This document shows positions 4,927 through 64,000 of a stretch of DNA of 64,000 bases, one piece after another; position 1 is the stretch's first letter; each line of letters opens with the position of its first letter. Source of the stretch: a virus. A program made the translations under genes and the position numbers. The stretch is from IMG/VR virus record IMGVR_UViG_3300031952_000015, positions 6,146 through 70,145 of that record. One strand, given 5' to 3'. The notes beneath the pieces are model-generated. The model searched no databases and was not told the origin of the DNA. It saw only the letters and a program-made list of their open reading frames with translations.

Positions 4927-7743
4927 TCAAAATCTTCCGCTGCCTCGAGCCTGCCGTTTCATCCAAGCGATCTTCTCAGGCCAAGTGACTTGGGCGAGGG
5001 TTTTCCTCAGCTCCTCAGTGTCCCGCTTCTCGAGGATCGGAAGCTTTTGCGGTCCCGGAACCGGGACAGTCGATGAATAATCTACAGTCGAGCCGATGCC
5101 AGACCTGAATCCCTCCTTAAGCAGCGCGAGAGCGTTTGCCCAGAACAGGTCTGCGTGTCCTTCAAGCCGCTTGTGGTCAGCCTTGAAGTCATAGTTCACT
5201 GCGTTCAAGTGCTTTACCTGCAGATCATCTCCGATGAAGCTCACTGAATCGTCCTGCATCATGTGCTTCATGTTTGTCGCCATCCGGTCGATGATCGGAA
5301 GCCGCTTCCCCCCTTGGCCAGATCTGACTCTCTCCGAGAACTGGATGCCCTCGACCATCGACCCATGCCGGCGTCTGAGGTAGTCGAACAGCCCAGTGCC
5401 GACGCCAGTCATGTCAATCCGGACCTTCACGATGCTCGGGAAGTGCCTGAAGAGGCTTGAAATTAGCGCTTCTTGATCTGGAGTGGAGACGTTCTTCAAG
5501 AGGCCGATGAATCGCTGTGTCATCCGCAGCTTTCCGTCCTCTGGATCGATGGTCTTCTCGAACAATGAGACTGCGGTGAAGTCTCGGCTCCGAGCGACAT
5601 CGATCCCTATGTACATCGGATTGTCAGTCTTGAAGACGAACTCAGAATCCTTTATGATGTCCTCATAGTAATTCTTCAGCTCATTGTCGATGCACTGCAT
5701 GATAAGAGAGTATGGTAAGAAGCTAAGTGAATCATCAAGGAACGAGCAATTATGAACGATCCCGATCTCAGTCAAATAGGTACTGTCGCCATCAACATCA
5801 AGATTCCAAACATCTCCAGAATAATCTTTAAAATCTATAGTTCTTATCTTAAGAAGATCAAATTTATCAAATTGAAAGACCTTGCTATGACGAACGCCCT
5901 GATGCGCTATACCAAAGAATTTAGATAGTCTTTCGAATGATTTACCATATATCTGGATTTGATAGGGGGGATTTCGGTTGACTTTCCTTCCAAGCAACAT
6001 TGCAGTTTTCCGCTTGTCTTTTGAAACATGCACACTCGAATAGACATTGTTCATAAGAAGCACGAGATTGATCTCTTTAGCCAATCTCTCCGAGATGGTC
6101 CCATAAATATATTTTTTCTCGGTCCGACAACCATCGCCATCAAAACACCCATTCAAAAGCCACATCATCTGATCCCTTGAAAGGTCCCAAACAAATTCTG
6201 GAAGGTGTTTATTCTTAGCTCCTATACCGAACAGTATGCGAAAGACGTCATGGAGAAGCTTATTAAAACAGACCACTTCTGTCGATGTCGGCCGAGTATC
6301 ATGATTTGAAATTGATGCTCGTTTCCCAAAGTACATCTCTATCGTCGTCTGGACTTCAGAAATTAATTGGCTCTCGCTCGATGAAAACCCAAACCTCAAT
6401 TGATTGCCAACGGCAGACCCTTCAGCAATATAAAGTCCAAACAGTCTAAGAACATCTCTATTAAGCGGGATCTCATCATATATTGAATTTTTAGGTTCGT
6501 TAAGTGGCAAAGAATTTCCTTTTGTCCATTTGACCTTATGATAAATCCGATCCCCAGATCTAATGAATGTGTCTCCAAGATATGCACTCAATCTGATGCT
6601 CTTAATGCCCCTGCGGCCATTCAATCTTGGAAATAGGATATAATCTCCAGGCTTGAGTTCCCCTGCCAACCTGAACTCTGGCGAGATCTTAAGGTACTCT
6701 CTCCTTGACTTGTTATTCTTGATTGAAAGGATTGGGTGATTTTTCGTGAGAGACATCTCGTTCCCTCCCCATACCTGCATCTTAACGCATTCTTCAGATA
6801 TTTTACGAGAGAGTATTCCCTTAACGATAGAAACCCCGCCATCTCGATTCAGTATCCTATCTCCAATGGAGATATTCTTGATTTGCATTGGTTTTTCTCC
6901 GAGGACGACTGTGTCAGGATGCAAGCACATTTGTTCCTGTTTGAAGATCTCAATATCTCTCTGCCGCTTCGTCTCAAGCTTCTTGACATTGATCCACGGC
7001 GCAATCGGAATAAGATTCTGAGGTTCCAGTGGCTTAAAGATGTCGACCTTGCTCGGATCATAGACTGGGAGGTTGAACACTCGGAATCCGACTGGTTTGT
7101 TGACAAGCCTGAAGAAATTATTGTTCCTGCCGTACGGCGTCGAGCCGATGATCGTCTGCGAGAGGCTTCCGATCATCGCATCCTGGACTGCTGCCAAAAG
7201 CTCATCTGATCTATTCTGGAACGCGTACTCATCGACCAGGCAGCGCATCAAGCGAAGACTTCTGACTGAATCCGCTGCGCTTCCAGACGGATATGACGCG
7301 ATGACTGATCCGGTCTTCTTGTTCCGGAGTTCAGTCTCCTTGAACTCAAACTGATCCTTGAGATTCCCGCAAGAGTTTAAAATGAACCACTTGCAGAGCT
7401 TGACTATGTAATTCGATGCCTTCTGTCGCTGCGCGATGACTGGGATAGTCTGGTTGTCGAAGATGCTCGCGGTCGTGATGATGTCGACACATGATGATGA
7501 CGTGAACGACACTCCCCTTGCTTTGATGTAAAGGATGTCCTTCGCATCAACCCCCTTGATGTTGAGCGACTCCAAGTGGAATTGCGCTTGGTACTTTGTC
7601 GGGACGTACGGGATCGGCTGGCCAGTCTCACTTCGCATCCTGAATGTGTTCGTAAGAAGCAGAAGGTACTCTTGCTGCTGAGCAGTCAACTCGATAGTCG
7701 GATCATACCAGCTCGGCAAGTACTTGATCTCAGGGAGCTCCAT
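4927..7743 (-). CDS. terL: Terminase large subunit with intein
   Basis: Walker A-like KARGVSFT, Walker B CLVDEYAF, coupling motif GSTPYGRNN, nuclease motifs YIGIDVARSRDFT, IDMTGVG and HADLFWANALAL. Confidence 0.92.
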   Translation of the reverse strand: MELPEIKYLPSWYDPTIELTAQQQEYLLLLTNTFRMRSETGQPIPYVPTKYQAQFHLESLNIKGVDAKDILYIKARGVSFTSSSCVDIITTASIFDNQTIPVIAQRQKASNYIVKLCKWFILNSCGNLKDQFEFKETELRNKKTGSVIASYPSGSAADSVRSLRLMRCLVDEYAFQNRSDELLAAVQDAMIGSLSQTIIGSTPYGRNNNFFRLVNKPVGFRVFNLPVYDPSKVDIFKPLEPQNLIPIAPWINVKKLETKRQRDIEIFKQEQMCLHPDTVVLGEKPMQIKNISIGDRILNRDGGVSIVKGILSRKISEECVKMQVWGGNEMSLTKNHPILSIKNNKSRREYLKISPEFRLAGELKPGDYILFPRLNGRRGIKSIRLSAYLGDTFIRSGDRIYHKVKWTKGNSLPLNEPKNSIYDEIPLNRDVLRLFGLYIAEGSAVGNQLRFGFSSSESQLISEVQTTIEMYFGKRASISNHDTRPTSTEVVCFNKLLHDVFRILFGIGAKNKHLPEFVWDLSRDQMMWLLNGCFDGDGCRTEKKYIYGTISERLAKEINLVLLMNNVYSSVHVSKDKRKTAMLLGRKVNRNPPYQIQIYGKSFERLSKFFGIAHQGVRHSKVFQFDKFDLLKIRTIDFKDYSGDVWNLDVDGDSTYLTEIGIVHNCSFLDDSLSFLPYSLIMQCIDNELKNYYEDIIKDSEFVFKTDNPMYIGIDVARSRDFTAVSLFEKTIDPEDGKLRMTQRFIGLLKNVSTPDQEALISSLFRHFPSIVKVRIDMTGVGTGLFDYLRRRHGSMVEGIQFSERVRSGQGGKRLPIIDRMATNMKHMMQDDSVSFIGDDLQVKHLNAVNYDFKADHKRLEGHADLFWANALALLKEGFRSGIGSTVDYSSTVPVPGPQKLPILEKRDTEELRKTLAQVTWPEKIAWMKRQARGSGRF
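5749..6927 (-). mobile_element. Intein (393 aa) with LAGLIDADG homing endonuclease
   Basis: Starts CLHPDTVV; block B LTKNHPI; LAGLIDADG-like LFGLYIAEG and LNGCFDGDG; ends VWNLDVDGDSTYLTEIGIVHN followed by Cys +1; visibly more AT-rich than the flanks. Confidence 0.93.
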
Positions 7744-12219: not shown

Positions 12220-14451
12220 TTAAATGCTTTGCTCCTTTTTCCGTGACTTAGGAGCTTTCTTGATGTCCAATGTCTCCCACGGGTAGTCCTGGAAGACAGA
12301 CCTCAGGATGCGCTCAGATGGCGGCCAGATGATGTGCGACCAATAATGGTCTTGATCGTATCCTGACGTGTAGCTCTCAGAGTAGATCGGCATCTTTCCC
12401 TTCGGGCCCTTGATGTAGATGTGCGAGATCTTCTGGCCGACCATGACCTCAGCGCCGCACTCGATCATCTGCTTCGCGACCAGCACATGCGGGATCGCGG
12501 TCTTGTACTCGATGATTGGCTTCGTCAGCTCCTTGTAGAGGAGGACATCGTCCTTCGTCAACTGACCAATCTGAACCAACGTCCGCTGAGCTGAGAGGTA
12601 TTCGAAGATCTCTAGCGAGGACTTGCCATTGAAGATCATGTCGATCACTGTCCGCTGCATCCTTAAAGCAAAGGCCGACTGGTCAGTCCTCACGAGCTCG
12701 ATCCCCTTGCAGAAGAATCTCGGTTCGATCTTCTTACCCTCATCCCAAGTCTGGACTCCAGCGTAGCGCTTCTTCGTGCCCTTCTCCTTATCGCCGACGA
12801 AGATCATCTGCTTGACTACCTTCTCGAACTTCATCTCAATCTTTCGGTCCTCTGGCGCGATGTTGAAGTTCCCAAGCAACGTCAAGTAAAAATCATTAAG
12901 CTCCTGCGTGAGCTTCTGTCCCAATGCAATCTGCTCGTCCAAGTTGTCCTTGTTGATCTTCACGAACAGGGAATCAGTGTCGATGTAGATAACTTGATAG
13001 CCCTTCTCCTCAAGGAAATTCTTGCTGATCTTGATGAGCCATCTCCCTGCCCGGGTGACTGAGCCAGCGATGTCGATGTGGTAGTATCTTGAGACTGGGT
13101 TGCCCATGACGCCGTAAAAACTGAGCAGGATGACCTTCGGCACCTTCTCCAAGATGTCATACAAGACCCACTCTGGCGTCCCCTTATCGAACGCATTGCG
13201 CTTCCGCAAGTAATAATTCCGCTCATCCTCAAGTCCAGTAAGAATTTGAGGGATGACTCCCTTGATGTCCTTCGCAAACCAAGCTGAATCATCTTCTGGG
13301 ACGTAGATCTTCTCCTTGCCAGCTCGCAGCGTTTCTGGTGAGATATTCCAACTTTGCATGATGCGATTGTAGAGCGACTTGAAGTCCAATATCAAGATAC
13401 CTCGATGCAATCCGGCCGGCGGCTCCTGCACATATCCTCCAACGAACGAGGTGCGCGTCGCCTTTGACTTCGGCCGGTACGGGAACCTTAACCCGAGCTT
13501 CAGCTCTCTCACCTTCCTAAGAATCATGTTGTCGATGATGATGGTCGGGAATCTTACCTCCTCAAGAAGACAATTCGTCTTTGAGCTCAACGAGTCTAAG
13601 ATCTGAGTGATCTGGAACTTCTCATCTATTTTCTTCATGAGCTTGCAATCCATGACATTGTACTCCATCAGCTTCTGCTTGTCCTCAAGGTAGGTCTCGA
13701 TCACCTTCTTGCCCAGCTTGATCTTCGTTTCTCCGAGCTCTGCGAGCGCGACATCATTCAGCGCGTACGACCGCATCCGCTTCATTTTGATGAACCTAGC
13801 CATGATGTCAAACTTCTGGAAGTATCTCCAGTTCAACTCTATCCCAAGCCAATTGCATCGCTCCTCCAAGTATGGGAAGTCAAACCCGTCGCCGTACCAC
13901 GCGACCAAGACATCGTAATCCTTCACAGCATTGTAGAAATCGCGGATAAGCCTCCGCTCGCAGTCTCGGTCCTTGTGGTTCTCGTTGATGAAGAACTTTA
14001 CCTTATCATTCTGATCGACGCACGCGATGCTCAAGATCGGATACCGACCAACATGAATCTCTGAGATCGTGTCATCTGTCTCGATGTCGATGTAGAGGAT
14101 CTTGAGTTTGTCAGTCCCTACCGGGGTGAGTGTGTCAATCAAGTACCGTCTCCAATATGGGATGTCTGACTCATAGGTCTTGACTCCAGCAACCTCAAGC
14201 GCGTCTCGGATCTTGTAGACCATGCCAGCTCTCTTGAGATACAGCTTAGCATACTTCCCCGTATACTCGACATCTGAGATCTCGCGAATCCGGGTGTACC
14301 GTTCGACTGCAGGATGCCCGCGATCGCCAGCTCCGATGATGATGTAATGCCTGAACACGGGGTAGTCGATCACCTGCTCGAACTTGTTGTCGCCATCCCG
14401 GTAAAGCAAAGTTATGGCATTGAACTTCGTCCAAGCAGAAACAATCCTCAA
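12220..14451 (-). CDS. polB: Family B DNA polymerase with 3'-5' exonuclease
   Basis: ExoI YIDIET, ExoII WYGDGFDFPYL, ExoIII YNVMD, motif A DFKSLYN, motif B KVILLSFYG, motif C YIDTDS, KKRYAG, KGIELVR. Confidence 0.96.
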   Translation of the reverse strand: MRIVSAWTKFNAITLLYRDGDNKFEQVIDYPVFRHYIIIGAGDRGHPAVERYTRIREISDVEYTGKYAKLYLKRAGMVYKIRDALEVAGVKTYESDIPYWRRYLIDTLTPVGTDKLKILYIDIETDDTISEIHVGRYPILSIACVDQNDKVKFFINENHKDRDCERRLIRDFYNAVKDYDVLVAWYGDGFDFPYLEERCNWLGIELNWRYFQKFDIMARFIKMKRMRSYALNDVALAELGETKIKLGKKVIETYLEDKQKLMEYNVMDCKLMKKIDEKFQITQILDSLSSKTNCLLEEVRFPTIIIDNMILRKVRELKLGLRFPYRPKSKATRTSFVGGYVQEPPAGLHRGILILDFKSLYNRIMQSWNISPETLRAGKEKIYVPEDDSAWFAKDIKGVIPQILTGLEDERNYYLRKRNAFDKGTPEWVLYDILEKVPKVILLSFYGVMGNPVSRYYHIDIAGSVTRAGRWLIKISKNFLEEKGYQVIYIDTDSLFVKINKDNLDEQIALGQKLTQELNDFYLTLLGNFNIAPEDRKIEMKFEKVVKQMIFVGDKEKGTKKRYAGVQTWDEGKKIEPRFFCKGIELVRTDQSAFALRMQRTVIDMIFNGKSSLEIFEYLSAQRTLVQIGQLTKDDVLLYKELTKPIIEYKTAIPHVLVAKQMIECGAEVMVGQKISHIYIKGPKGKMPIYSESYTSGYDQDHYWSHIIWPPSERILRSVFQDYPWETLDIKKAPKSRKKEQSI

Positions 14452-23810: not shown

Positions 23811-24770
23811 TTAGACATCTTTGATCCCTCCACGGGTGATGATGAATGGTGCCTCGCCGTCCGGGAGGTGCGGAGCGTCGACCAGCTTCGCGACCTTAGT
23901 CCCCCTGGACCCCTTCCGCAAGTAGATGCGGTACATCGCATTGTGGCCGACGATATGGCCGCCAACTGCTCGAGTCGGATCGCCGAACAATTGGCCTGGA
24001 TTCACCATGACTTGGTTTGTGACATAGACGATGACGTTGTAGATGTCGGCGAGCCGTGTGAGGTGCTGGAGATGTTTGTTGAGCTTCTGTTGCCTCTCAG
24101 CGAGCGTCCCTCGCCCGAGGTACTCCCCCCTGAACGCGGCAGTAAGACTGTCGACGACGATGAGCTTCACAGGGAGCTTGTCGTCGGTGATCAGCCTCTC
24201 TGCCTTCTCAGCTAAGAGCATCTGATGGTCGGTCGAGTAGGATCGCGCATATTTTATGTTCTTCAAGACCAACTCTCCATCGATGCCGGCAGCCTCCGCG
24301 ATCTCCCGGATCCGCTGCGGCCTGAAGGACCCCTCGCTGTCAATCCAAATGCACACGCCGCTGTGGGGCTCTTTTTGGACGTTCACTGCGAGCTGATGGG
24401 CGATCTGCGTCTTGCCAGAGCTGAACTCGCCATAGCACTCAGTGATGCTCCCAGACTCGAACCCGCCGTCGATGAGCGCGTCGAGCTTCTCGCTCCCGAT
24501 CTTGACATGGAAGATCTTCTTCCGATATTCTTCCTGCTCGAACCCAGTCTTGAAGTCTAATCCGCAGAGCTCTCGCGCCGCGTTGATCAGCTTCATGGTG
24601 GAGAGCTTGTTCATCTCAGTGAGATCCATCACGTCGGCCACTGAGGCAGTCGCGATCTTCATCAAGGTGGAGTAGCCGGCGTTGATCAGCTTCTCCGCAG
24701 TCGCTGGTCCGACTCCAGGCAGGTCGGTGATCTCAGAAACAGTCTCCTCAGTCTCGGGCTTCTTCTTCAT
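23811..24770 (-). CDS. radA: Archaeal DNA recombinase RadA
   Basis: HhH DLPGVGPATAEKL, Walker A GEFSSGKTQ, IDSEGSFRPQRI, VVDSL, GRGTLAERQQKL, TNQV, GGHIVGH, KLVDAPHLP. Confidence 0.96.
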   Translation of the reverse strand: MKKKPETEETVSEITDLPGVGPATAEKLINAGYSTLMKIATASVADVMDLTEMNKLSTMKLINAARELCGLDFKTGFEQEEYRKKIFHVKIGSEKLDALIDGGFESGSITECYGEFSSGKTQIAHQLAVNVQKEPHSGVCIWIDSEGSFRPQRIREIAEAAGIDGELVLKNIKYARSYSTDHQMLLAEKAERLITDDKLPVKLIVVDSLTAAFRGEYLGRGTLAERQQKLNKHLQHLTRLADIYNVIVYVTNQVMVNPGQLFGDPTRAVGGHIVGHNAMYRIYLRKGSRGTKVAKLVDAPHLPDGEAPFIITRGGIKDV

Positions 24771-55183: not shown

Positions 55184-56161
55184 TCAGGCTGTGCCCTTGC
55201 AGATGGCGTACGGGTAGATCACGGCCAGCACGTACGACATGAGGCCGACGACCTCACGATCGTATGGGCGACCCGGGATCGCGCCCTCGTAAGTCTGCAG
55301 ATCTGACTCCTTGATCAGCATCGCAGCCTTCTTGTTGTCAAGCACAAGGTACTTGGCAGCTGTGAGGAACGGCGTCTCCACGAGCTTCAAGTTGCCGAAT
55401 ACCAACGCGGGGCGGTTGATGACGAACTCGTCACCAGGCCGTGCGTTGGCATAGTACACGTGAGCTTTCCACTCAGCAGTCTTCTTGAGCGTGCCTGACT
55501 CAGATGTCGCAAGCACCAGGCGGTTCGCCAGGAAGCCGTAGGGCACGCCGTTCGCGTACACAGCAGCGTTGACCTTGGTCTCCGAGTTGATGATGTTGTC
55601 GTAGGTCGTTCCGCCGCCCTGTGAAGATCCGGCGCCGGCTGCGAGCCCGTTCACGATGTCAGTGGCGAGCTTCCTTGTGATGGCGTCAGCTGCGTTCTGC
55701 AGGACGAACTTCACGAAGTCGGTCATGCCCCTCTTCATGATCTGCCATGTGAGCGCAGTGCCCGCGACCACTGGACGGCAGGTGACTGTGATTGAGTCAG
55801 CACCCTCGTCGAAGTAGTTCACGACCTGGCCTTCTGCGATCTCGTAAGCGATCGTGGGCAGCAAGCGCGGGATCTGGTATGCGCCGAATCCGCCCTTGTT
55901 CAGGAGATCGTTGTTCATGAAGACAAGCTCCATGATGTCCTTGATGTTCTCGATGGCCGCGCTGTAGAGCGTGGTCGAGAGCATTGTGGTGTAGGCGCCG
56001 CTACCGGTCGTTGTGGTCACGTCCTCCTTGAACGTGATGCCGAACGATTCGGCGAGCACTCGCGTCTCTGGCTTGGCTGCGAATGACTCAGCGAGCAGCT
56101 TTCCAGCCATCTCTGTCAACTGGTTGCCGTAGTTTGTGAACTGCGGCGCTTTGTATGCCAT
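55184..56161 (-). CDS. Major capsid protein (HK97 fold)
   Basis: 325 aa after protease and scaffold; IAYEIAEGQ, ADAITRKLATDIV, FGNLKLVETP. Confidence 0.85.
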   Translation of the reverse strand: MAYKAPQFTNYGNQLTEMAGKLLAESFAAKPETRVLAESFGITFKEDVTTTTGSGAYTTMLSTTLYSAAIENIKDIMELVFMNNDLLNKGGFGAYQIPRLLPTIAYEIAEGQVVNYFDEGADSITVTCRPVVAGTALTWQIMKRGMTDFVKFVLQNAADAITRKLATDIVNGLAAGAGSSQGGGTTYDNIINSETKVNAAVYANGVPYGFLANRLVLATSESGTLKKTAEWKAHVYYANARPGDEFVINRPALVFGNLKLVETPFLTAAKYLVLDNKKAAMLIKESDLQTYEGAIPGRPYDREVVGLMSYVLAVIYPYAICKGTA

Positions 56162-56178: not shown

Positions 56179-56784
56179 CTAACTGTACAGGACCCTGCTA
56201 AGAGCCCTTCCGATGTTCTCCTTGTCCGCTCTCTCGGTCTTCACCGTCTCGGTGAATGCGTTGACGAGCTTCGCCTTCTCTGTGAGAGGCGGTTGCGGCT
56301 CCTCCTCGTCCTTCTCTGGAACTAAAGGAGCGGTACCTTGACCCTTTTCTCCCTCGAGCGCCTCGACTCTCTTCGAGAGCTTCTCGAGGATCTCGACGAC
56401 CTTGCCCATGTCATCCTCATACTGCTCGCAGAAGTGCTCGAGCACAGTCTGCTCGGCTCCCTGCTTCTTCGAGAGGTCGTCCTGAGATGCGGTCTTGGCA
56501 TTCAAGTCAGTCCCGCCAGCGGCGATGTTCGTCGCGGGCTCGGTCTGCTTGTCATTCTCAAGTTCGCCCTCTTGGTACTTCTTCCCGAGGTCATCCTGAG
56601 ATGCTTTCTCGGGATTCGGTGTCGTTGTCCCCTGGGTGATGTTCGCGCCAGGCTCTGCCTGGACATCTTTCTCACGTACGTTTTCCCTTTGACTTTTGGC
56701 CATCGCCAGATCCTCCCTCAACTTTCGATTCTCTTCCATGACATTCTTGAGCATTTCCCTTGGTTCCATGGTCACACCCGCCAT
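56179..56784 (-). CDS. Scaffolding protein
   Basis: Acidic coiled-coil protein between protease and MCP; internal repeat QxEPxxNIxxGxTxxNxxxASQDDLxKK twice. Confidence 0.7.
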   Translation of the reverse strand: MAGVTMEPREMLKNVMEENRKLREDLAMAKSQRENVREKDVQAEPGANITQGTTTPNPEKASQDDLGKKYQEGELENDKQTEPATNIAAGGTDLNAKTASQDDLSKKQGAEQTVLEHFCEQYEDDMGKVVEILEKLSKRVEALEGEKGQGTAPLVPEKDEEEPQPPLTEKAKLVNAFTETVKTERADKENIGRALSRVLYS

Positions 56785-56826: not shown

Positions 56827-58089
56827 TTAATGGTAGGAAAAGGGCGACCTCACGGTGCCCCGCTTGGCGTCCTCGAGTATCTTCGAGTAGACCGTCTCGG
56901 CATCAGTGGCGGTCGGGTAGGCGAACGTCCAGAAAGCAGAGCCTAGCTTGACGATGTACCCGAAGCCCTCATACTCCTCGATGCTCAAGACCCCGAGCTT
57001 AGTCTCAGCCTTCTTGACTGTCTTCTGCTCTCTGAATCTCATCATCTCGGCGAGCGCCTCTGCCGGCGGGATCTCGCTCGTGATCTTCGATGCCTTGAGC
57101 TCATCCTCCATCTTCGCAAGGTGAGTGTAGTAGTCAGGGAATTCTGCGAGATGCGCCTTTGCGATCTGCTTCGCTAAGTCCTTGTCATCTGTGTGCTCAG
57201 TCTCAACCTCGGCTCCCGCAGCAAGCTGAGATGGATCGAATTTGTCGTCCGGGTCATCTCCATGCTTGAGCGTCGAGAGCGCCTCCTTGAATGACTCAGT
57301 GTCCTTCTTGCCGACGATCTTCGTTGGCGCCATCGCGCCTCCCCCAGTCGTGGTTGTGACGTCCTCCTTGCACTCGGCGACTGCAGCTACTGGCCGAAGC
57401 TCCCCATACGGAGCCTCGGACTCAGAGCCGTCCTCCCACTTGACCTTCGCGGCATTGGCCGAGAAGCCTGTCACGTCTCCCCTCCTTCCCTGGGCGTCGA
57501 TGATCTTGTCGCCAATCTTGAACGGCACATCCATCTGCTCGAGATTGATATTTGTCCCTGGCGGGGATCCGAGGGCCTCCGCGAACTTCGCAGTAGTATC
57601 GAGGAATCCAGGCGCTGGGACAATGGATCCCTCGATGATGTCCGAGACCCATGCCTCAGTGAACGTCCTGCCAGTAGACTCCTCGAGCCGCTCGATGACC
57701 TTGCCGCCGAGGAGCTGGATCGAGACGTGCCGCAGGTCCTCGCGCTTGAGCTTGCCGATCAGTTCTTCCTCTCTTGGGTCGATGTCGGCCTTGTAGTGCC
57801 AGCCGTCGTCCTCAAGCCACGACTCGATGAAGTGGCCCTTCGGCATCATGTCAGTATCTACCTTGTGGTTGTACATCACTGGCCGTCCGATGAGCTGCTT
57901 GTGCTTCTCCCTGATCGACTCAACATTGTACAGCACGTTGTTCCGCGAGATCTTCCCGAACGGGAGCAGCAGTCCCTCCATGATAAACTTTTTCGAGCCG
58001 GTCTGCGGGTTAATTGCTTCTGCGAACCGGAACGGGCTCTCTGACGGGATCCAGATCTTCTCAGTGAAGATCCTCATGTTCTCTGCCAT
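56827..58089 (-). CDS. Prohead protease (clan SH) with appended C-terminal mini-domains
   Basis: SRNNVLY, RPVMYNH (His), RHVSI (Ser), EGSIVPAPG; then an SH3-like module, a DUF5661-like GAEVETEHTDD...AKAHLAEFPDYYTHL module and a beta-beta-alpha module. Confidence 0.85.
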   Translation of the reverse strand: MAENMRIFTEKIWIPSESPFRFAEAINPQTGSKKFIMEGLLLPFGKISRNNVLYNVESIREKHKQLIGRPVMYNHKVDTDMMPKGHFIESWLEDDGWHYKADIDPREEELIGKLKREDLRHVSIQLLGGKVIERLEESTGRTFTEAWVSDIIEGSIVPAPGFLDTTAKFAEALGSPPGTNINLEQMDVPFKIGDKIIDAQGRRGDVTGFSANAAKVKWEDGSESEAPYGELRPVAAVAECKEDVTTTTGGGAMAPTKIVGKKDTESFKEALSTLKHGDDPDDKFDPSQLAAGAEVETEHTDDKDLAKQIAKAHLAEFPDYYTHLAKMEDELKASKITSEIPPAEALAEMMRFREQKTVKKAETKLGVLSIEEYEGFGYIVKLGSAFWTFAYPTATDAETVYSKILEDAKRGTVRSPFSYH

Positions 58090-58093
58090 GATT

Positions 58094-60028
58094 TCACCTC
58101 TTGCTCTCGCCGTAGGCGAGCGCTCTCCACATCCGATTGAGGACGCTTGAGACGCCCTCCTTCTTCTCTGTGATCACTTGAGTGCTGTAGTCCACTAATT
58201 GCTTCTGAGTGTCACTCGGGACCTCTGACCATGATCTGGCGGCTAAGCTCTTGTCAGCGTGGACTGACTGGAGCATCTCTTCTTTTTCCTCCATCGACAG
58301 GATGTTTGTCCACCAGAACTCATTGCTCTCTGATCTTTCCGTGAACTTCTGAGACATCGCTCGCGCGTAGGACTTCTCGAACTCCTCATCTACTTTTTTC
58401 GTCTCCTCTGGAGTGAGGTCCTTCGGGCTCTTCTTGAAGAGCTGCTGAGCGATCGCCTGATAGTCTTCGACTGGGCTCTGCTCTCTGAGATTCTCGATCC
58501 CGAACAGCCCCTTGATGAACTTGCTCGCGATCTTGTAGATGGCTGCCTCGATGTCAGGCACTGGGATCCCGATCTGATCAGCGAGCTCGTGGACCATCTC
58601 GTCAGTCGGGTCTGGGTTCATGGCAAGGAACTTCACGACCTTCACGACCAAATCGTCTGGGACTGCTGACTCGCACTTAGTCACAATGCTCTCGATGAGC
58701 GTCACATTCGCTGGGTCGAAAGCACCATGCTTCAGATAGCCGTCGAGGTCCTTCTGGATGTCCGCTGGAAGAGACTCCCAACTTAATTTCGCCCAGGCTT
58801 TCGTCTTCTCGCTCGGGAAGTAGCCGATCACTTGGAGGAACTTGACTTTCCCAGACTCGTCAAGCGATTGCCATTTGTTCCGTCCACGATAGAGTCGTGG
58901 ATCGCCTTCCTTGAGCGATTCGTCCTTAAACAAACCCCAATTCGGGTCATAGTCGGGTTCCCACCAACCGAGTTGCATAGAAGGAGGATTCTTCTGCCTA
59001 CGCAACTTGTCAGCACACGACTCACAAACTTCACCAATGCCCTTAACGTCATAGTAGATGGCTTTCTTTGGCTCCGCTGGTAGTTGGCGTACTGGTATTT
59101 TCTTTTTGCAGATGGAACATACCGGAGGTTTGTCATTTTCCGTAAAAGATTCCCGTTTATTTCCATACTTCTCCTTGAGCGACTCCCCAAAATCAACAAA
59201 TCCACATTCAGGACATTTATACTTTCGGTCAGCAGTTCCGAGAAGCGCACCACACTTCTTGCAGTGAAAGTCGTAGGGATTTTCTTTTCGTTCTTTAGGC
59301 GATGGAACGTCTCGTTTTTCTTTGAACGACTCCATCCGGCTCTTCGCCTCGGAAATCAGAGCTCGCGCCGCGTTGATCGGGAACCCTCGCTCGTTGACGA
59401 GCCAAGAGAAGATTGTCTTCTCAGTCTCGCCTTGCTTGAGCTTGTCTTGGATCTGCTTGAATGCTCCATCGCTCTCTGCGAGCGACTCTCCTCTGCGCTT
59501 CTGTGACATCATGATGGCGACGTGCTGCGCTATCGCGTCCTTCTTAGAATCGTGGCAGGCGATGACGCTCCCTGCGGGCTTGTCAGTCTTAGATCCAGGC
59601 TTCTGAGGATGCCCGTGCAGGACGCACCACTTGTCGCCGCGCTTCGCGATTGTCTCCTTGCAAGCTCCTTTTTCGAACAATGGCATCCCCTTCTCGCGCT
59701 TGTATTGAGAGTAAAGCTGCATCATGTCCCCATCTGTCTCGGCTTCAAGGTTATGCCCTGCCTTGAGGACCCAATCTAAAAAATCCTTGCTGAAGTTCTG
59801 CTCGACCCACTCAGGGCTGACCTCTGAGAAGGATTCTTCCTTCTGCTCCGCAGCTGCGATGACGACGTTCGCGACGTCGGGATCGACACTGAACCGGTCG
59901 ACGATAAGCTCCTTGATCTGGGATTTCGGCTTTCCGAGCTGGAGCTGCACCCGCGCGTAGCGAACCATCTGCTCCTGCCAGCGCGGAACTCTCTCACTGA
60001 GCCTCTCTAATCGTTCTCTGAATCCCAT
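58094..60028 (-). CDS. Modular polyprotein B (about 10 mini-domains separated by ES(F/L)xE-type motifs); putative internal head protein
   Basis: N-terminal MGFRERLERLSE; linkers ESFSE, GACKE, ESLAE, ESFKE, ESLKE, ESFTE, ESLKE, ENLRE, KFTE. Confidence 0.75.
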   Translation of the reverse strand: MGFRERLERLSERVPRWQEQMVRYARVQLQLGKPKSQIKELIVDRFSVDPDVANVVIAAAEQKEESFSEVSPEWVEQNFSKDFLDWVLKAGHNLEAETDGDMMQLYSQYKREKGMPLFEKGACKETIAKRGDKWCVLHGHPQKPGSKTDKPAGSVIACHDSKKDAIAQHVAIMMSQKRRGESLAESDGAFKQIQDKLKQGETEKTIFSWLVNERGFPINAARALISEAKSRMESFKEKRDVPSPKERKENPYDFHCKKCGALLGTADRKYKCPECGFVDFGESLKEKYGNKRESFTENDKPPVCSICKKKIPVRQLPAEPKKAIYYDVKGIGEVCESCADKLRRQKNPPSMQLGWWEPDYDPNWGLFKDESLKEGDPRLYRGRNKWQSLDESGKVKFLQVIGYFPSEKTKAWAKLSWESLPADIQKDLDGYLKHGAFDPANVTLIESIVTKCESAVPDDLVVKVVKFLAMNPDPTDEMVHELADQIGIPVPDIEAAIYKIASKFIKGLFGIENLREQSPVEDYQAIAQQLFKKSPKDLTPEETKKVDEEFEKSYARAMSQKFTERSESNEFWWTNILSMEEKEEMLQSVHADKSLAARSWSEVPSDTQKQLVDYSTQVITEKKEGVSSVLNRMWRALAYGESKR

Positions 60029-60030
60029 GA

Positions 60031-63000
60031 TCATCCCCAGAACTGCTTTTTCATCGTGTCTCCACGACCGTGAGGCCAGGTAGCTGGATTCGCGTAGAGG
60101 CTGCCGCAGACCGCAGCTGGGTCTTTTGCGAACCCTGCAGACTTCGCCCAGTCCATGCACTTGTCCCAGCCGGCCTTCGGCGGGCGGTCATCCTGTTCCT
60201 TGAAGGACTCGCGGAGACTCTCGATGCGGCTGCGGAAGGACTCCTTCACGAGATACTCGGTTGGAACCTCTTCAACACTTCCGTCGGGATGCTGCACCTT
60301 TGCCGTGCGATGCTCAACGTCATCAAAATTAAGAATCGTCATCACTGGCGATTCCGGTGCTCCTGCGAACTTTACTTTATCTCCTTTCTTGAGTGCTTCC
60401 TTGAAGGACTCCCTCAGTTTTCTCCAATCGGCGGGATGGCTCGACATGTATCTATTTGCTCCGGCCACTGCGTCTTGTTTAGATTTGAAAAAATTAATTT
60501 CAATATTCTTGCCGGTCGCTGGCCTGTATACATTGTACGCCCACTCATCCTTGCCAGTTGCTGGATTCTGATATTGACCGATCTCCACGACAGTTTCCTG
60601 GGGTTTCCAATCGGACCATAACCCTTCCTTGAAGGACTCTCCGCCCCATTTGGGCTCTTTCGCTTGCTTGTATCTCTGGTCGAGATCATCCTTGAGTTGC
60701 CCTTTCTGGCTGCTCGTCAAGTCTGACTTGTCGATGAGAGATCTCGTCGACTTCACTTGGAATGCGACATCTCGAATATCATCAGCCGTCTCGAACGTGA
60801 GGTCGATGAGCTTCTTGAACCCATCCAATGTAGTCGGGTGGAAATCATCAGCTTCCTTGAAGGACTCCTTCATCATTCTTACAGTCTCATCAACGAAGGT
60901 CTTCTGTTGTTGGGTGAGTTCATCATACCTCTTCTTGAACAGTTTGAGAGCCCAATCATTTTTTTTAAAATTCGCCTCCTTGAAGGACTCAGGGAACTTC
61001 CATCCCTTCGCAAGAAGTTCATCTGCCTCAGTCCGGGTCTCAACAGTCGTAACCCCGCCGGTTCGCGGATTCACTAGATGATACACTTCCTTGAAGGACT
61101 CCTTAGTTTTTTTATCAATTTTACGCTTCGCGTCTGTGACTGCGGCAGATTCAGATGGGAAAGGACCATAGTCCTCCGAACCCCATTCTTCATCCTCTTC
61201 ATCCCAAAAGATACGACTTCCCCAATCCTTATCCTCAACATCATAAATAACATTCACGTCATATCCTTTATATTTAAACACGGTCACTTTTTGCTTATCT
61301 ACTTTCTCACTCATTTTTTCCTTGAAGGACTCCTTCGCTTTCGCCCTTCGCTGGAGGAGCAGTGACCACAGCTGAGACTCAGCCCAATCACTCGCTTCAT
61401 CTTCAGTCTTGAATCCGCCCTTGCTGTTGAGATGGGTGCTTCCCTCGAAGGTGACATTCCACGTGCCGTGGCGCTCTTGCTCTACCTCGTAGAGCTTCTC
61501 CTTCGGCTCGCCTTTCTCCTTAAAGGACTCCTGAGCCATTGCATCCTTTATCTTCTTGGCTGCCTTGTTGATTTTCTCAGCCGCATCTTTGTCGCCAGCA
61601 GCAGCAGCAAAAAACAACGCATCTGCCTGCTCATTCGTCAGATTGTACTTAGACATCAATTCGGCCTTGACCTCTCCCACCGATGCCTCCTTAAACTTGC
61701 AGGCTTCCCTCTTGCCGTACCTCTCCCTGAGCTGCCTGAGCGGCTCTGCGGTATCCTCGATGTGCTCCATAGAATTTCCCCCCGTCCACGTTGCGACCAT
61801 ATCCTCGAGTTCGCTTTTGTTGATGACTATGGTTTTTGTAGCTCCATCCATGAGGACTGTGATCTCGTTCCCGGCGACGTCCTTGACGATCCCAGTCGCG
61901 CTCTTTAGCTTCGGCTTGAACGTAAACCGCATCCCAGGATGGATGCTCTCCTTGAGAGACTCTTCCTGCTCTCCTGCCTCGGGAGGATTCAACAGCATTC
62001 CATTCCTCGCTCGCGCGCCGGGGGTCCTCAACTCGCACGCCTGATAGTGTCCCTCTGAGCCGATGCCGAATCCGCATCGCGAACAATACCCATAGGTCTC
62101 TCCTTCCTGTTCCTTGAAAGACTCCAACCGGCTACGGAATGATTCCCGATGTGTTGCTATGTAATCATTCGCCCACCGTTCAGCTTCAGATTTATCCTTG
62201 AATTCATGAGTGACAATGGCTGGATGGATAGCATTCCCGAGCCGGTCCGTGTTCCACAGCGACGCCCACCATTTGCCAGATGAGTCAGTCGTGAGATTCA
62301 AGGCCTTCATGGTCTTCTTGTTCATCCAGACGTCCTTTCGCTGCTCTTCCCAGGATTCTTTAAGAGACTCCTTGTTCGGGTAGTTCTGGAGCTTGGCCTT
62401 GACATTCGGAAGCTCGATCTGGTACGCCTCCCCTCCTTGGACGACCCGCTTGATCTTGCCCTTCTGTTCGCTGCCCCCCATGTCATGGAAGCTGACCTGC
62501 TCGCCAGGCTTGAACTCGACCTGCTCTTTGAGAGATTCTCCCATCTTCGCTCCATCGCGGATCATCCGCGCTCTCTGCTGTTCTTCTCTTGACAATTCTC
62601 CGTATTCCTTCTTGAAGAATGCTCTTGCGATCGCGTCAAGATCGTCTGTCCCAGTCGCTTCCTTGAGCGACTCCAGCCGGCAGCGGAAGGATTCTGGCCC
62701 ACCAAACGAAACGCTAACATCCTTTCCTCCAGCCTTAGAAATCTTATCCGCCTCTTCGTCCGCTTGTGGTCCCGGAACTTTTTTAGTATGGAATTTCCCA
62801 TTCTTATCTGTCCAGTCAATGCTGGCCATTCCTCGTTGCTTTTTTTGAATTAAGTCTGGCACATCGACTTTTATCTCTTTGAAGGATTCTGCCTTCGGCA
62901 TCCGCTGAGCCTTGAGCGCTTCGTCTGCGACTTTCTTTCCTAATTCGGTAAGCTCTCCGCCCTTGACCCAGCCCAAGGCCTTTGAGAACTGTGAGTTGAC

Positions 63001-64000
63001 CATCTGAGTCTCGATGTCTTCTCGCGAGAGCGATTCCTTGAGTGACTCATTCATCGGGAACTCTCCCATCAACCGAACTACGTTATCCTTCGCTCCCGCG
63101 TAGTCCTTCTGTAGAATCGCGCTCTTCAAGTCATCCATCAACAATTGGACGTCTGAATCATCCAACGGCGCGAGTCCGTCAAGTCGCTTCCATGCCTGCA
63201 TAGCATCATCCCATCGCTGAGCGAGAATAAATCCCTTGAGGTCGTCAAGGGTGTCATATCCTTCGCCTTCCTTGAAGGACTCCTTCTTCGAGTCAAGTGC
63301 CTGGTACTTAGATTTCATCTTATTGAAGAAATCCTGAGCTGACGACCTGGTTTTGAAATCCCTGTCGAGCTCTTTGATTACTTCTCTGGTCCTCAGGTCT
63401 TCTCCCCAGGTCGACCAATAGGTCCCCTCTTCGGTGTCGTTCGTCTCATCAAGACCGAGTGCGTACTTTTTCCCATACCAACTATCGATCACGTCCGTCC
63501 CGGAGGACTCCTTGAAGGACTCAGAGAGCGATTCAAGCCGATTGCGAAATGACTCACCATAAAACTTGTCATCGAATGCCGTGTTGACCTTAGTCTTCTG
63601 GTCATCTGAAAGATCGACGTACTTCTTGCCAAACATCTTCTGAGAGAGATCATCTTTCTCTCCAGAAAGCTTTTCCCTGAAGGACTCCTTGATTTTGACT
63701 CCTTGCGCCTTCAAATCTCTGATAACGTCTTTGACATATTCAGCAACCCTTGAAAAATCTGCCGGTGGCACTTCACGCTTAAATGCAGCAAGAACCATAG
63801 CAACAGTTTCGCCGCGCGTCAATCGCTCTTCTGCATCATCGATGAATCCTTGCATCTCATCATCACTCATTTTTTCCTTGAAGGACTCCTTCATCATTCT
63901 TACAGTCTCATCAACGAAGGTCTTCTGTTGTTGGGTGAGTTCATCATACCTCTTCTTGAACAGTTTGAGAGCCCAATCATTTTTTTTAAAATTCGCCTCC
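60031..64000 (-). CDS. Modular polyprotein A (over 1320 aa, 5' end outside the window; at least 21 mini-domains separated by ESFKE/ESLKE); putative internal head protein
   Basis: The frame stays open to base 64000; more than 20 ES(F/L)(K/R)E linkers at roughly 30-80 aa spacing. Confidence 0.8.
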   Translation of the reverse strand, partial: EANFKKNDWALKLFKKRYDELTQQQKTFVDETVRMMKESFKEKMSDDEMQGFIDDAEERLTRGETVAMVLAAFKREVPPADFSRVAEYVKDVIRDLKAQGVKIKESFREKLSGEKDDLSQKMFGKKYVDLSDDQKTKVNTAFDDKFYGESFRNRLESLSESFKESSGTDVIDSWYGKKYALGLDETNDTEEGTYWSTWGEDLRTREVIKELDRDFKTRSSAQDFFNKMKSKYQALDSKKESFKEGEGYDTLDDLKGFILAQRWDDAMQAWKRLDGLAPLDDSDVQLLMDDLKSAILQKDYAGAKDNVVRLMGEFPMNESLKESLSREDIETQMVNSQFSKALGWVKGGELTELGKKVADEALKAQRMPKAESFKEIKVDVPDLIQKKQRGMASIDWTDKNGKFHTKKVPGPQADEEADKISKAGGKDVSVSFGGPESFRCRLESLKEATGTDDLDAIARAFFKKEYGELSREEQQRARMIRDGAKMGESLKEQVEFKPGEQVSFHDMGGSEQKGKIKRVVQGGEAYQIELPNVKAKLQNYPNKESLKESWEEQRKDVWMNKKTMKALNLTTDSSGKWWASLWNTDRLGNAIHPAIVTHEFKDKSEAERWANDYIATHRESFRSRLESFKEQEGETYGYCSRCGFGIGSEGHYQACELRTPGARARNGMLLNPPEAGEQEESLKESIHPGMRFTFKPKLKSATGIVKDVAGNEITVLMDGATKTIVINKSELEDMVATWTGGNSMEHIEDTAEPLRQLRERYGKREACKFKEASVGEVKAELMSKYNLTNEQADALFFAAAAGDKDAAEKINKAAKKIKDAMAQESFKEKGEPKEKLYEVEQERHGTWNVTFEGSTHLNSKGGFKTEDEASDWAESQLWSLLLQRRAKAKESFKEKMSEKVDKQKVTVFKYKGYDVNVIYDVEDKDWGSRIFWDEEDEEWGSEDYGPFPSESAAVTDAKRKIDKKTKESFKEVYHLVNPRTGGVTTVETRTEADELLAKGWKFPESFKEANFKKNDWALKLFKKRYDELTQQQKTFVDETVRMMKESFKEADDFHPTTLDGFKKLIDLTFETADDIRDVAFQVKSTRSLIDKSDLTSSQKGQLKDDLDQRYKQAKEPKWGGESFKEGLWSDWKPQETVVEIGQYQNPATGKDEWAYNVYRPATGKNIEINFFKSKQDAVAGANRYMSSHPADWRKLRESFKEALKKGDKVKFAGAPESPVMTILNFDDVEHRTAKVQHPDGSVEEVPTEYLVKESFRSRIESLRESFKEQDDRPPKAGWDKCMDWAKSAGFAKDPAAVCGSLYANPATWPHGRGDTMKKQFWG
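60198..63888 (-). repeat. Dispersed 13-bp repeat GAGTCCTTCAAGG (encodes ESFKE)
   Basis: Exact copies (plus strand ccttgaaggactc) start at 60198, 60399, 60627, 60855, 60978, 61089, 61320, 63270, 63510 and 63876, with further variants. Confidence 0.9.
63874..64000. repeat. Exact duplicate (at least 127 bp) of module 60853-60979
   Basis: Base-for-base identical, offset 3021 bp (in frame), bounded by the ESFKE repeat. Confidence 0.92.

Follow-up and report, generated by a model that had tools for sequence, protein, structure and literature searches.

Which proteins travel inside a tailed-virus capsid is a choice that is understood in very few systems, and T4 is essentially the one case in which a short portable leader has been established. 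The head genes of an uncultivated tailed virus from sediment (record IMGVR_UViG_3300031952_000015, genome about 70 kb) raise the question of whether such a leader exists elsewhere. The stretch that we analyzed, hereafter the window, is the final 64,000 bases of the 70,145-base virus contig. All of the genes lie on the minus strand, and the end of the window is the head module, which reads portal with a fused MuF-like part, two small genes, polyprotein A, polyprotein B, a 420-amino-acid (aa) protease protein, a scaffold-like protein, a capsid protein of predicted HK97 fold, cement, and tail genes. An earlier note had drawn attention to a 12-mer that heads B and recurs four times inside A, and had read it as a capsid-targeting leader comparable to that of the T4 internal proteins. 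Judged by its sequence, this 12-mer is an extended form of a commoner junction pentapeptide, ES[FL][KR]E, a point that the note had missed. The explanation that we lean towards as a whole, with somewhat more confidence than doubt, is that A and B are cargo polyproteins, that the pentapeptide is cut by a protease resembling T4 gp21, and that the 12-mer is a propeptide leader.

A contains the pentapeptide, counted as E[ST][FL][KR]E, 24 times (shuffle mean 0.048, maximum 2), and B contains it three times (shuffle mean 0.017). It is found once in the protease protein and once in a methyltransferase-like protein, and it is absent from all remaining minus-strand ATG open reading frames (ORFs) of at least 60 aa in the genome. 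When the proteins are split after the final Glu, with Ser allowed at P2, A yields 24 modules of 36-199 residues each, plus two stray SFKE, and B yields five pieces; each is thus a single polypeptide of many domains, encoded between portal and protease. Residues 1-471 of A are located at the contig start, outside the window (the part inside it is given in Table 1).

The longer pattern F[KR]x[KRD][LI]xx[LFIVM]xE is present six times in full-length A (shuffle mean 0.006, maximum 1; 2000 shuffles) and once in B, where shuffling gives an expectation of 0.004. Translation of the minus strand confirmed the five 12-mers of the earlier note, one heading B and four inside A, with 59993-63555 as their outer limits. 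The four internal copies do stand at module junctions, as the note had held: each closes with the junction pentapeptide, and two then carry an extra SFKE. The N-terminal leaders read M-x-FRE-[RD]L-xRLxE, and the internal 12-mers read ESFRx-RL-ES[LF]xE, in which two residues separate a junction-like pentapeptide from a true one. The endings are L-S-E, L-N-E, L-K-E, F-K-E, or L-R-E, that is, hydrophobic-x-Glu. Chance or an assembly artifact as the origin of the motif was ruled out by the shuffle enrichment together with Logan contigs.

The start of B is sound, as it reads ATG-ATC-ATG, its first ATG overlaps the TGA of A as ATGA, and the database call of 644 aa places the start at MGFRE. The true start of A lies past the window end and was reached in frame through a 112-nucleotide (nt) overlap of the contig ends. 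Its ATG is preceded by GGAGGGAGGAGA, the protein starts MAFREDLKRLNES, and the peptide is present again at residue 67, the two leader copies differing by two synonymous and no nonsynonymous changes. The second MAFREDLKRLNES (locus L060:1288-1326, minus strand, outside the window) is preceded by GAGGCTGGA, and from the sequence an internal start at residue 67, giving a shorter product with its own leader, is conceivable. The 142-aa gene upstream of A begins MRSFRERLNVV, after GGAGGT. As A, B, and this gene all carry the leader, every sizeable product between the portal region and the protease begins with the motif.

The capsid protein has 145 metagenomic homologs, on contigs of up to 78 kb, and our set of relatives comprised 59 loci (7 viral and 52 metagenomic). 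The motif, which the earlier note had proposed to look for in related viruses, is conserved there: it heads small genes that lie between portal and protease in L002, L004 (three genes), L008, L029, and L040, beginning two to four residues from the Met, as it does in A, B, and the 142-aa gene. Across the 59 loci, the strict 12-mer pattern gave 28 matches on the gene strand and none on the opposite one, in 12 distinct contexts: six right after Met (L002, the three L004 genes, L029, and L040), five after [EQ]-S (internal or C-terminal), and one that looks spurious. We then counted a looser N-terminal pattern in the nonredundant genes of 50 loci, with the head module defined as the 7 kb upstream of the capsid gene. 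It matched 17 of 164 head-module genes versus 0 of 191 downstream genes; 11 of these matches were scaffolds (M-x-x-KEKLxxILxE) and six were small cargo-like genes. A cargo-leader position-specific scoring matrix (PSSM) gave scores above 8 at 13 of 164 head-module N termini versus 0 of 254 others, and whereas seven of the 13 were training instances, six were not, including two scaffolds. The junction pentapeptide was 12 times denser upstream of the capsid gene (54 in 34,241 residues) than downstream (4 in 31,235). L008, a close relative with a capsid protein 80% identical, has a polyprotein of its own with the same grammar. The leader-bearing 240-aa protein of L048 (1918-2637, plus strand) contains HEIGH, by sequence a zincin-like metal-binding motif, and ends with a second long motif, ESIKEKLTRLKENL.

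The neighbor of B has the T4 gp21 fold by Foldseek. The AlphaFold2 (AF2) model of protease residues 1-185 has a mean predicted local distance difference test (pLDDT) score of 83.7, and its best match in the Protein Data Bank (PDB) was T4 gp21 (5jbl, chains A-C; E 5.7e-7 to 3.1e-6, probability 1.00, template modeling [TM] score 0.56-0.63), followed by herpesvirus (maturation) proteases (probability 0.95-1.00). H75 and S123 are invariant in the alignment of 62 protease sequences, and the atlas neighbors of the protein are Peptidase_S78/S77 clusters at 0.81-0.84, which is a lead only. As modeled, the 420-aa protein shares the gp21-like prohead protease fold, yet it is no sequence member of Peptidase_S77 or Peptidase_S78. 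When viral contigs were scanned with a single-protein pattern of the protease, no relative emerged.

The capsid protein, according to its model, has the HK97 fold. Encapsulin and HK97 chains align with the model from residues 46-72 onward, and in VIA-align encapsulin EncA (Z 17.4, root-mean-square deviation [rmsd] 3.4, 229 aligned) and HK97 Prohead II/gp5 (Z 16.7, rmsd 3.0, 220 aligned) are so close in Z that they count as tied. Pfam Phage_capsid stayed under its cutoff (20.6 versus 24.2 bits), and a PDB profile search with the capsid alignment gave nothing relevant. The F-K-E that closes the N-terminal extension of this protein (residues 44-46) has an invariant E46, K45 in at least 90%, and F, L, or Y at P3 among 25 homologs. 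In the model, this candidate cut site lies in a low-confidence stretch (residues 44-60) that follows two short helices. Proteases with this fold cleave behind Glu at x-x-E, and the consensus of T4 gp21 is L/I-x-E. Because a gp21-like fold is encoded next door and the conserved capsid F-K-E falls exactly where the HK97 fold begins, we infer that [F/L]-x-E is a maturation cleavage site of the gp21-like protease.

The C-terminal extension of the protease contains DUF5661 (Pfam E 6.6e-12), and its ECKE/DVTTTTGGGA (the slash marks the candidate cut) is a near copy of the capsid FKE/DVTTTTGSGA. Capsid-like copies of this kind are present in at least seven among the 150 protease homologs listed, and they may be self-cleavage sites or a means for the protease to sit among the capsid N-arms. 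In the same 150 homologs, E[SA][FLM]xE occurs 64 times versus 10.9 expected, clustered directly past the catalytic fold and in the C-terminal extensions, with only five of the 64 sites before residue 150. The features of the extension recur in protease homologs, including arrays split by ES[FL]xE in P0157 (7 sites) and P0257. In more distant relatives (L032, L040, L042, L046, L050, and L055), a protease-scaffold fusion is encoded directly upstream of the capsid gene, and these fusions keep AESFK.. past the fold and a capsid-like ..E/INTSTAGGA stretch. The scaffold-like protein of this virus probably starts at M6, which gives the leader-like MEPREMLKNVMEE (56731-56769). A complex prediction for the scaffold (15-row alignment) with B residues 1-71 scored 0.00 and, as controls were not run, says nothing either way.

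The modules of A and B recur in other proteins. P0271, the prohead protease of another virus followed by a module array, shares four identical blocks of 46, 71, 48, and 72 residues with A; their order differs, ESFKE forms the exact edge of each at both ends, and outside them the two sequences are unrelated. P0214 shares another 46-residue block with A. Residues 460-507 of B recur in the C-terminal protease extensions of relatives, part of B and the DUF5661 module are found in relatives' protease extensions or as separate small genes, and the C-terminal module of A is kept as a separate gene end in L001 (59% identity, 74 aa). Fusion to the protease would place a module inside the procapsid, and we infer from these sequences that the modules of A and B are capsid cargo. 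The suggestion of the earlier note that the internal 12-mers are relics of fused genes fits this distribution, as the same modules are found as separate leader-bearing genes, in protease fusions, and inside polyproteins. Homologs of A or B at similar length were limited to one match (P0271) and one partial match of unrelated architecture (P0273) among 7998 candidates sharing most words, which does not prove rarity.

The boundaries of exchange coincide with the pentapeptide at the DNA level as well. A contig from another sample and study joins window position 60396 to 61318, with 16 letters (the ESFKE codons) that fit both sides, and the joined pieces (148-215 nt) differ from the window at 0-1 letters. 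A second contig of that other-sample run matches the window at a single module only (62522-62658), and the sequence flanking it on either side is different. The codons GAG TCC TTC AAG GAA/G are used at about half of the sites in A, TCC being otherwise a minority Ser codon, and the remaining sites keep the peptide with other codons (TCG, TCT, TCA, or AGT for Ser; AAA for Lys; CTC or CTT for Leu). This codon usage indicates that the peptide is selected as such, and that its codons also serve as recombination points.

In the cargo-polyprotein explanation, A and B would be chains of about 30 mini-domains, each ending in E-S-[F/L]-[K/R]-E, and the gp21-like protease would most likely cut behind the last Glu (P3 = F/L, P1 = E) and so free the domains inside the procapsid. 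The 12-mer would be a longer, helical form in which a junction pentapeptide is followed by [KR]-L and then by another cut site, and F, L, and L would share one face of the helix. It stands at the start of each cargo product that is translated on its own (A, B, the 142-aa gene, and small genes of relatives), where it would act as a propeptide that draws the product into the core during assembly and is then removed. In function it would be comparable to the T4 capsid-targeting sequence (CTS), and by this analogy a T4-CTS-like leader is plausible. Internal 12-mers would be leaders carried along by module fusion or swapping, and the ESFKE codons would double as microhomology for module exchange between viruses. 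We also entertain, more tentatively and with doubt prevailing, a two-level grammar in which the 12-residue leader, shared with the scaffold N terminus, admits any polypeptide to the core, ES[FL][KR]E releases the mini-proteins, and the 15-16 nt of its codons are recombination points at which cassettes are traded behind a leader or a protease. The lineage using such a grammar would possibly be one of archaeal viruses.

The 12-mer could instead be cut site and linker only: two adjacent protease sites, found at N termini since modules bring their upstream junction along, with the packaging of A and B left, for instance, to a folded module, to the C-terminal module that is conserved, or to the portal/MuF-like protein. 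That the long motif can be parsed as two pentapeptides, the first of them junction-like, with two residues in between agrees with this, as do its internal and C-terminal copies, the retention of the C-terminal module of A as a gene end in L001, and the portal N termini, which hold just a short form, M-x-[FL]-[KRT]-E (MNFKE, MKFTE, and MNLKE in relatives; MVSLRE in this virus). We nevertheless think it unlikely, because conservation spans 12-13 residues with fixed hydrophobic spacing, beyond what [FL]-x-E needs, because one copy per separately translated cargo product here and in at least seven small genes of relatives is hard to obtain by chance, and because the duplicated leader copies of A have diverged by synonymous changes only. 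That the 12-mers are shell-binding anchors is, in our estimate, improbable. By analogy with encapsulin cargo-loading peptides, these amphipathic peptides would bind the inner face of the capsid and tether A multivalently, which would suit both their presence at N termini, at C termini, and internally and the encapsulin shells that stand ahead of HK97 gp5, in a tie, among the structural matches of the capsid model. The Glu positions of the motif, however, fit protease sites, and the virus has a separate scaffold and protease. Moreover, encapsulin cargo peptides are C-terminal and of another sequence type.

Least credible of all is a recombination linker without proteolysis, in which the ESFKE codons would mainly provide microhomology for shuffling and the polyproteins would act uncut. 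It would account for the recurrent codons with their minority TCC, for the blocks shared with P0271 that stop exactly at the motif, and for the joint in the other-sample contig. It would not account for the sites that conserve the amino acids with different codons, for the persistence of the motif in relatives with a capsid protein identity of only about 54%, or for the conserved tripeptide in the capsid protein and just past the protease fold, where there is no shuffling.

Several observations weigh against the cargo-polyprotein explanation itself. The protease had no Pfam hit besides DUF5661 at E <= 0.01, no PHROG hit, and no PDB sequence hit, and the pLDDT of the capsid model, 65.7, is only middling. 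What the capsid and protease sites have in common with the junctions is limited to [F/C]-K-E, the E-S of P5-P4 being absent, so that the pentapeptide may carry information beyond cleavage; S-x-x-E is a helix N-cap, too. The long motif is found at C termini (a 62-aa protein of L001 and the 240-aa protein of L048) and internally, unlike a strictly N-terminal signal, and several cargo-like small genes of relatives have no leader. Scaffold N termini scored 1.4-13 with the PSSM, above background, versus 19-25 for cargo leaders; they resemble the leader without equaling it, and the likeness may be partly compositional. That A continues across the contig ends depends on an overlap that is in frame but is also a repeat. 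The functional roles, namely cleavage at the motif, packaging of the modules, and targeting, are deduced from sequence, fold, and context.

Head proteins guided by propeptides and processed by proteases are already known. The T4 internal proteins have N-terminal propeptides of 10-19 residues that target them to the core (passages in PMC9026906 and PMC8442874), and residues 8 and 10 of the 10-residue IPIII propeptide govern its processing (passage in PMC9026906). The leader described here would resemble the T4 CTS (IPI-IPIII) in being a short N-terminal propeptide on otherwise unrelated head-internal proteins, with diverse cargo (passages in PMC9026906 and PMC3012670), in ending hydrophobic-x-Glu, and in adjoining a protease of the same fold as gp21. 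By eye only, it also follows the T4 peptide given in a passage of PMC8442874 (Met, basic/small, aromatic, Glu, hydrophobic, L/I-x-E), a 10-12-mer being too short for a homology test. It differs from the T4 CTS in that no sequence homology is detectable and that the motif is also internal and C-terminal. The pentapeptide here splits polyproteins into 24 and 5 pieces, whereas the T4 internal proteins are single and cut once. A further difference from T4 is that the GenBank phage set contains no relative of this virus and that its RadA is of the archaeal/eukaryotic type.

In the giant phages phiKZ, 201phi2-1, and SPN3US, whose ejection proteins mature through cuts at several sites, the protease gp245 recognizes an A-X-E motif (passages in PMC10052503). 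As the same passages describe for those phages, the prohead protease here would, from the sequence, cut behind Glu at x-x-E in many head proteins, act on long propeptides at more than one site, and remove its own C-terminal part. In contrast to the giant phages, where the cuts strip propeptides from large proteins, the sites here separate many small modules of roughly equal rank, P3 is F or L rather than A, and the genome is about 70 kb rather than 240 kb. The polyvalent proteins of phages and conjugative elements are large multidomain products of late or virion genes; the proposal is that they are packaged, accompany the DNA on delivery, and are then processed to separate units (Iyer et al., 2017; passages in PMC5512222). 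A and B are likewise large multidomain products encoded among virion genes, but polyvalent proteins have recognizable enzymatic domains and a zincin-like peptidase of their own that is thought to process them, whereas the processing signal here is a repeated pentapeptide that fits the capsid protease, and A and B have no peptidase of their own. No signature domain of polyvalent proteins (zincin-like peptidase, ART, ParB-like, or others) exceeded the Pfam threshold in A, B, or 10 modules. HK97 gp4, protease-scaffold fusions, and the herpesvirus assemblin precursor also combine a catalytic domain with a part that ties the protease into the procapsid and is cut off in those systems; in this lineage, unlike those, the swappable cargo modules that make up the extension form an open-ended array (P0157, P0257, and P0271), together with a copy of the candidate cut-site region of the capsid protein.

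A literature search, in which supplementary files were outside the scope, found no description of a cargo polyprotein of some two dozen mini-domains or of module exchange at cut-site codons, and no paper on DUF5661. The matches listed for ESFKE/ESLKE were unrelated, as judged from title and abstract, no paper joined at least three of the four terms prohead protease, polyprotein, ejection proteins, and cargo, and no such motif appeared in titles and abstract starts among the matches listed for prohead proteases or polyproteins of archaeal tailed viruses. The present case supplies a sequence-defined, widely conserved candidate signal and cut site in an uncultured lineage, and a candidate route for shuffling head-delivered proteins, which are often counter-defense factors, by swapping whole modules at protease-site codons. 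If the cargo-polyprotein explanation is true, a tailed double-stranded DNA virus would use a structural polyprotein strategy, and a capsid-targeting signal would exist outside the relatives of T4. The leader and cut site could then load chosen proteins into HK97-type shells, and the approximately 30 uncharacterized mini-domains would be a catalog of candidate early-acting viral effectors.

Table 1. Head-gene features in window coordinates; slashes mark candidate cut positions
Feature	Position	Strand	Basis or detail
Candidate leader 12-mer MGFRERLERLSE, N terminus of B, ends L-S-E	59993-60028	minus	Translation; ATGA overlap; database gene call
Internal copy 1 ESFRNRLESLSE, then SFKE	63520-63555	minus	Translation
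Internal copy 2 ESFRCRLESLKE	62659-62694	minus	Translation
Internal copy 3 ESFRSRLESFKE	62110-62145	minus	Translation
Internal copy 4 ESFRSRIESLRE, then SFKE	60208-60243	minus	Translation; same module and motif in P0271
Polyprotein A, residues 472-1793 of 1793	60031-63999	minus	ORF; wrap-around; 21 ES[FL][KRS]E junctions inside the window
41-aa module of A (ANFKKNDW...MMKESFKE), internal copy, also in P0271	60853-60975	minus	DNA 60860-60979 identical to 63881-64000
120-nt repeat	63881-64000 and 60860-60979, plus contig start		Identical DNA
Polyprotein B, 644-646 aa, five pieces	58094-60034	minus	ORF and junction coordinates
B junction ESFSE	59822-59836	minus
B junction ESFKE	59318-59332	minus
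B junction ESLKE	59171-59185	minus
B junction ESLKE	58907-58921	minus
Predicted prohead protease catalytic domain, residues 1-185 of 420 aa	57535-58089	minus	AF2, Foldseek, 62-sequence alignment
Protease C-terminal extension	56827-57534	minus	Order: small beta-rich stretch, ECKE/DVTTTTGGGA, ESFKE, DUF5661, MRFREQ, last module
Extension site ECKE/DVTTTTGGGA	57334-57375	minus
Extension site ESFKE	57283-57297	minus
Extension site MRFREQ	57025-57042	minus
Scaffold-like protein	56179-56784	minus	Alignment with 14 relatives, relatives' N termini, start context, PSSM ranks
Major capsid protein, predicted HK97 fold	55184-56161	minus	46-residue N-terminal extension ends ...LAESFGITFKE/DVTTTTGSGA (55994-56050; FKE 56024-56032)

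No Pfam family exceeded threshold in A, B, or 10 single modules, and PHROG, PDB, and Pfam sequence searches of the protease, the scaffold, A, B, and these 10 modules gave sub-threshold matches only (KOW-like, DUF2188, DUF3622, Arm-DNA-bind_4, and FYVE), with the exception of DUF5661 in the protease. Among the modules at 61516-61947, 62356-62523, and 60208-60396 (minus strand), some resemble small SH3/KOW-type beta domains and others zinc ribbons (CxxC...CxxC), with sub-threshold Pfam scores of 0.002 for KOW5_SPT5 and 0.00068 for DUF3622, and four modules have the helix pattern [ML]F-x-K-x-Y-x-x-L-S/T in common.

The first and last 112 bases of the contig are identical, and 112-120 bases recur once inside ORF A. 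The record owes its class to a 112-nt "direct terminal repeat" whose sequence is that of the internal 120-nt repeat of gene A, and this repeat may have caused the contig to end there; the CheckV completeness of the record is 74. In Logan contigs of the probable source run, the repeat is a 139-nt unitig of depth 16, versus 9.2-11.8 in the flanks, with two exits, one to a 2,942-nt piece inside the window and the other to a 17,650-nt contig leading out. No Logan contig spans the repeat and could thereby confirm the order of the two loops independently, so the module order there is that of the original assembly, and A could contain further modules hidden at the repeat.

We found no match to the capsid protein or the protease by tblastn among GenBank phages, and no capsid relative, hence no provirus or host, among contigs of GTDB species-representative genomes. 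The listed sequencing runs that hold the sequence include no RNA run. The virus encodes a RadA/Rad51-type recombinase (23811-24770, minus strand; Pfam Rad51 264.5 bits, N-terminal HHH_5), and this archaeal/eukaryotic type of RadA sequence hints at an archaeal host. It also encodes a family B DNA polymerase (12220-14451, minus strand) and a large terminase of 938 aa (Terminase_6C; 4927-7743, minus strand) that is split by an intein with a LAGLIDADG homing-endonuclease domain. The portal was called from PHROG portal families that match the protein with the fused MuF-like part. It is an 888-aa protein (L060:3271-5934, minus strand, outside the window) whose fused part is a MuF/SPP1 gp7-like "head morphogenesis" part, and it has a Hint/mini-intein-like domain at about residues 775-885, directly before a conserved C-terminal CRCTY motif, an insert that its relatives lack.

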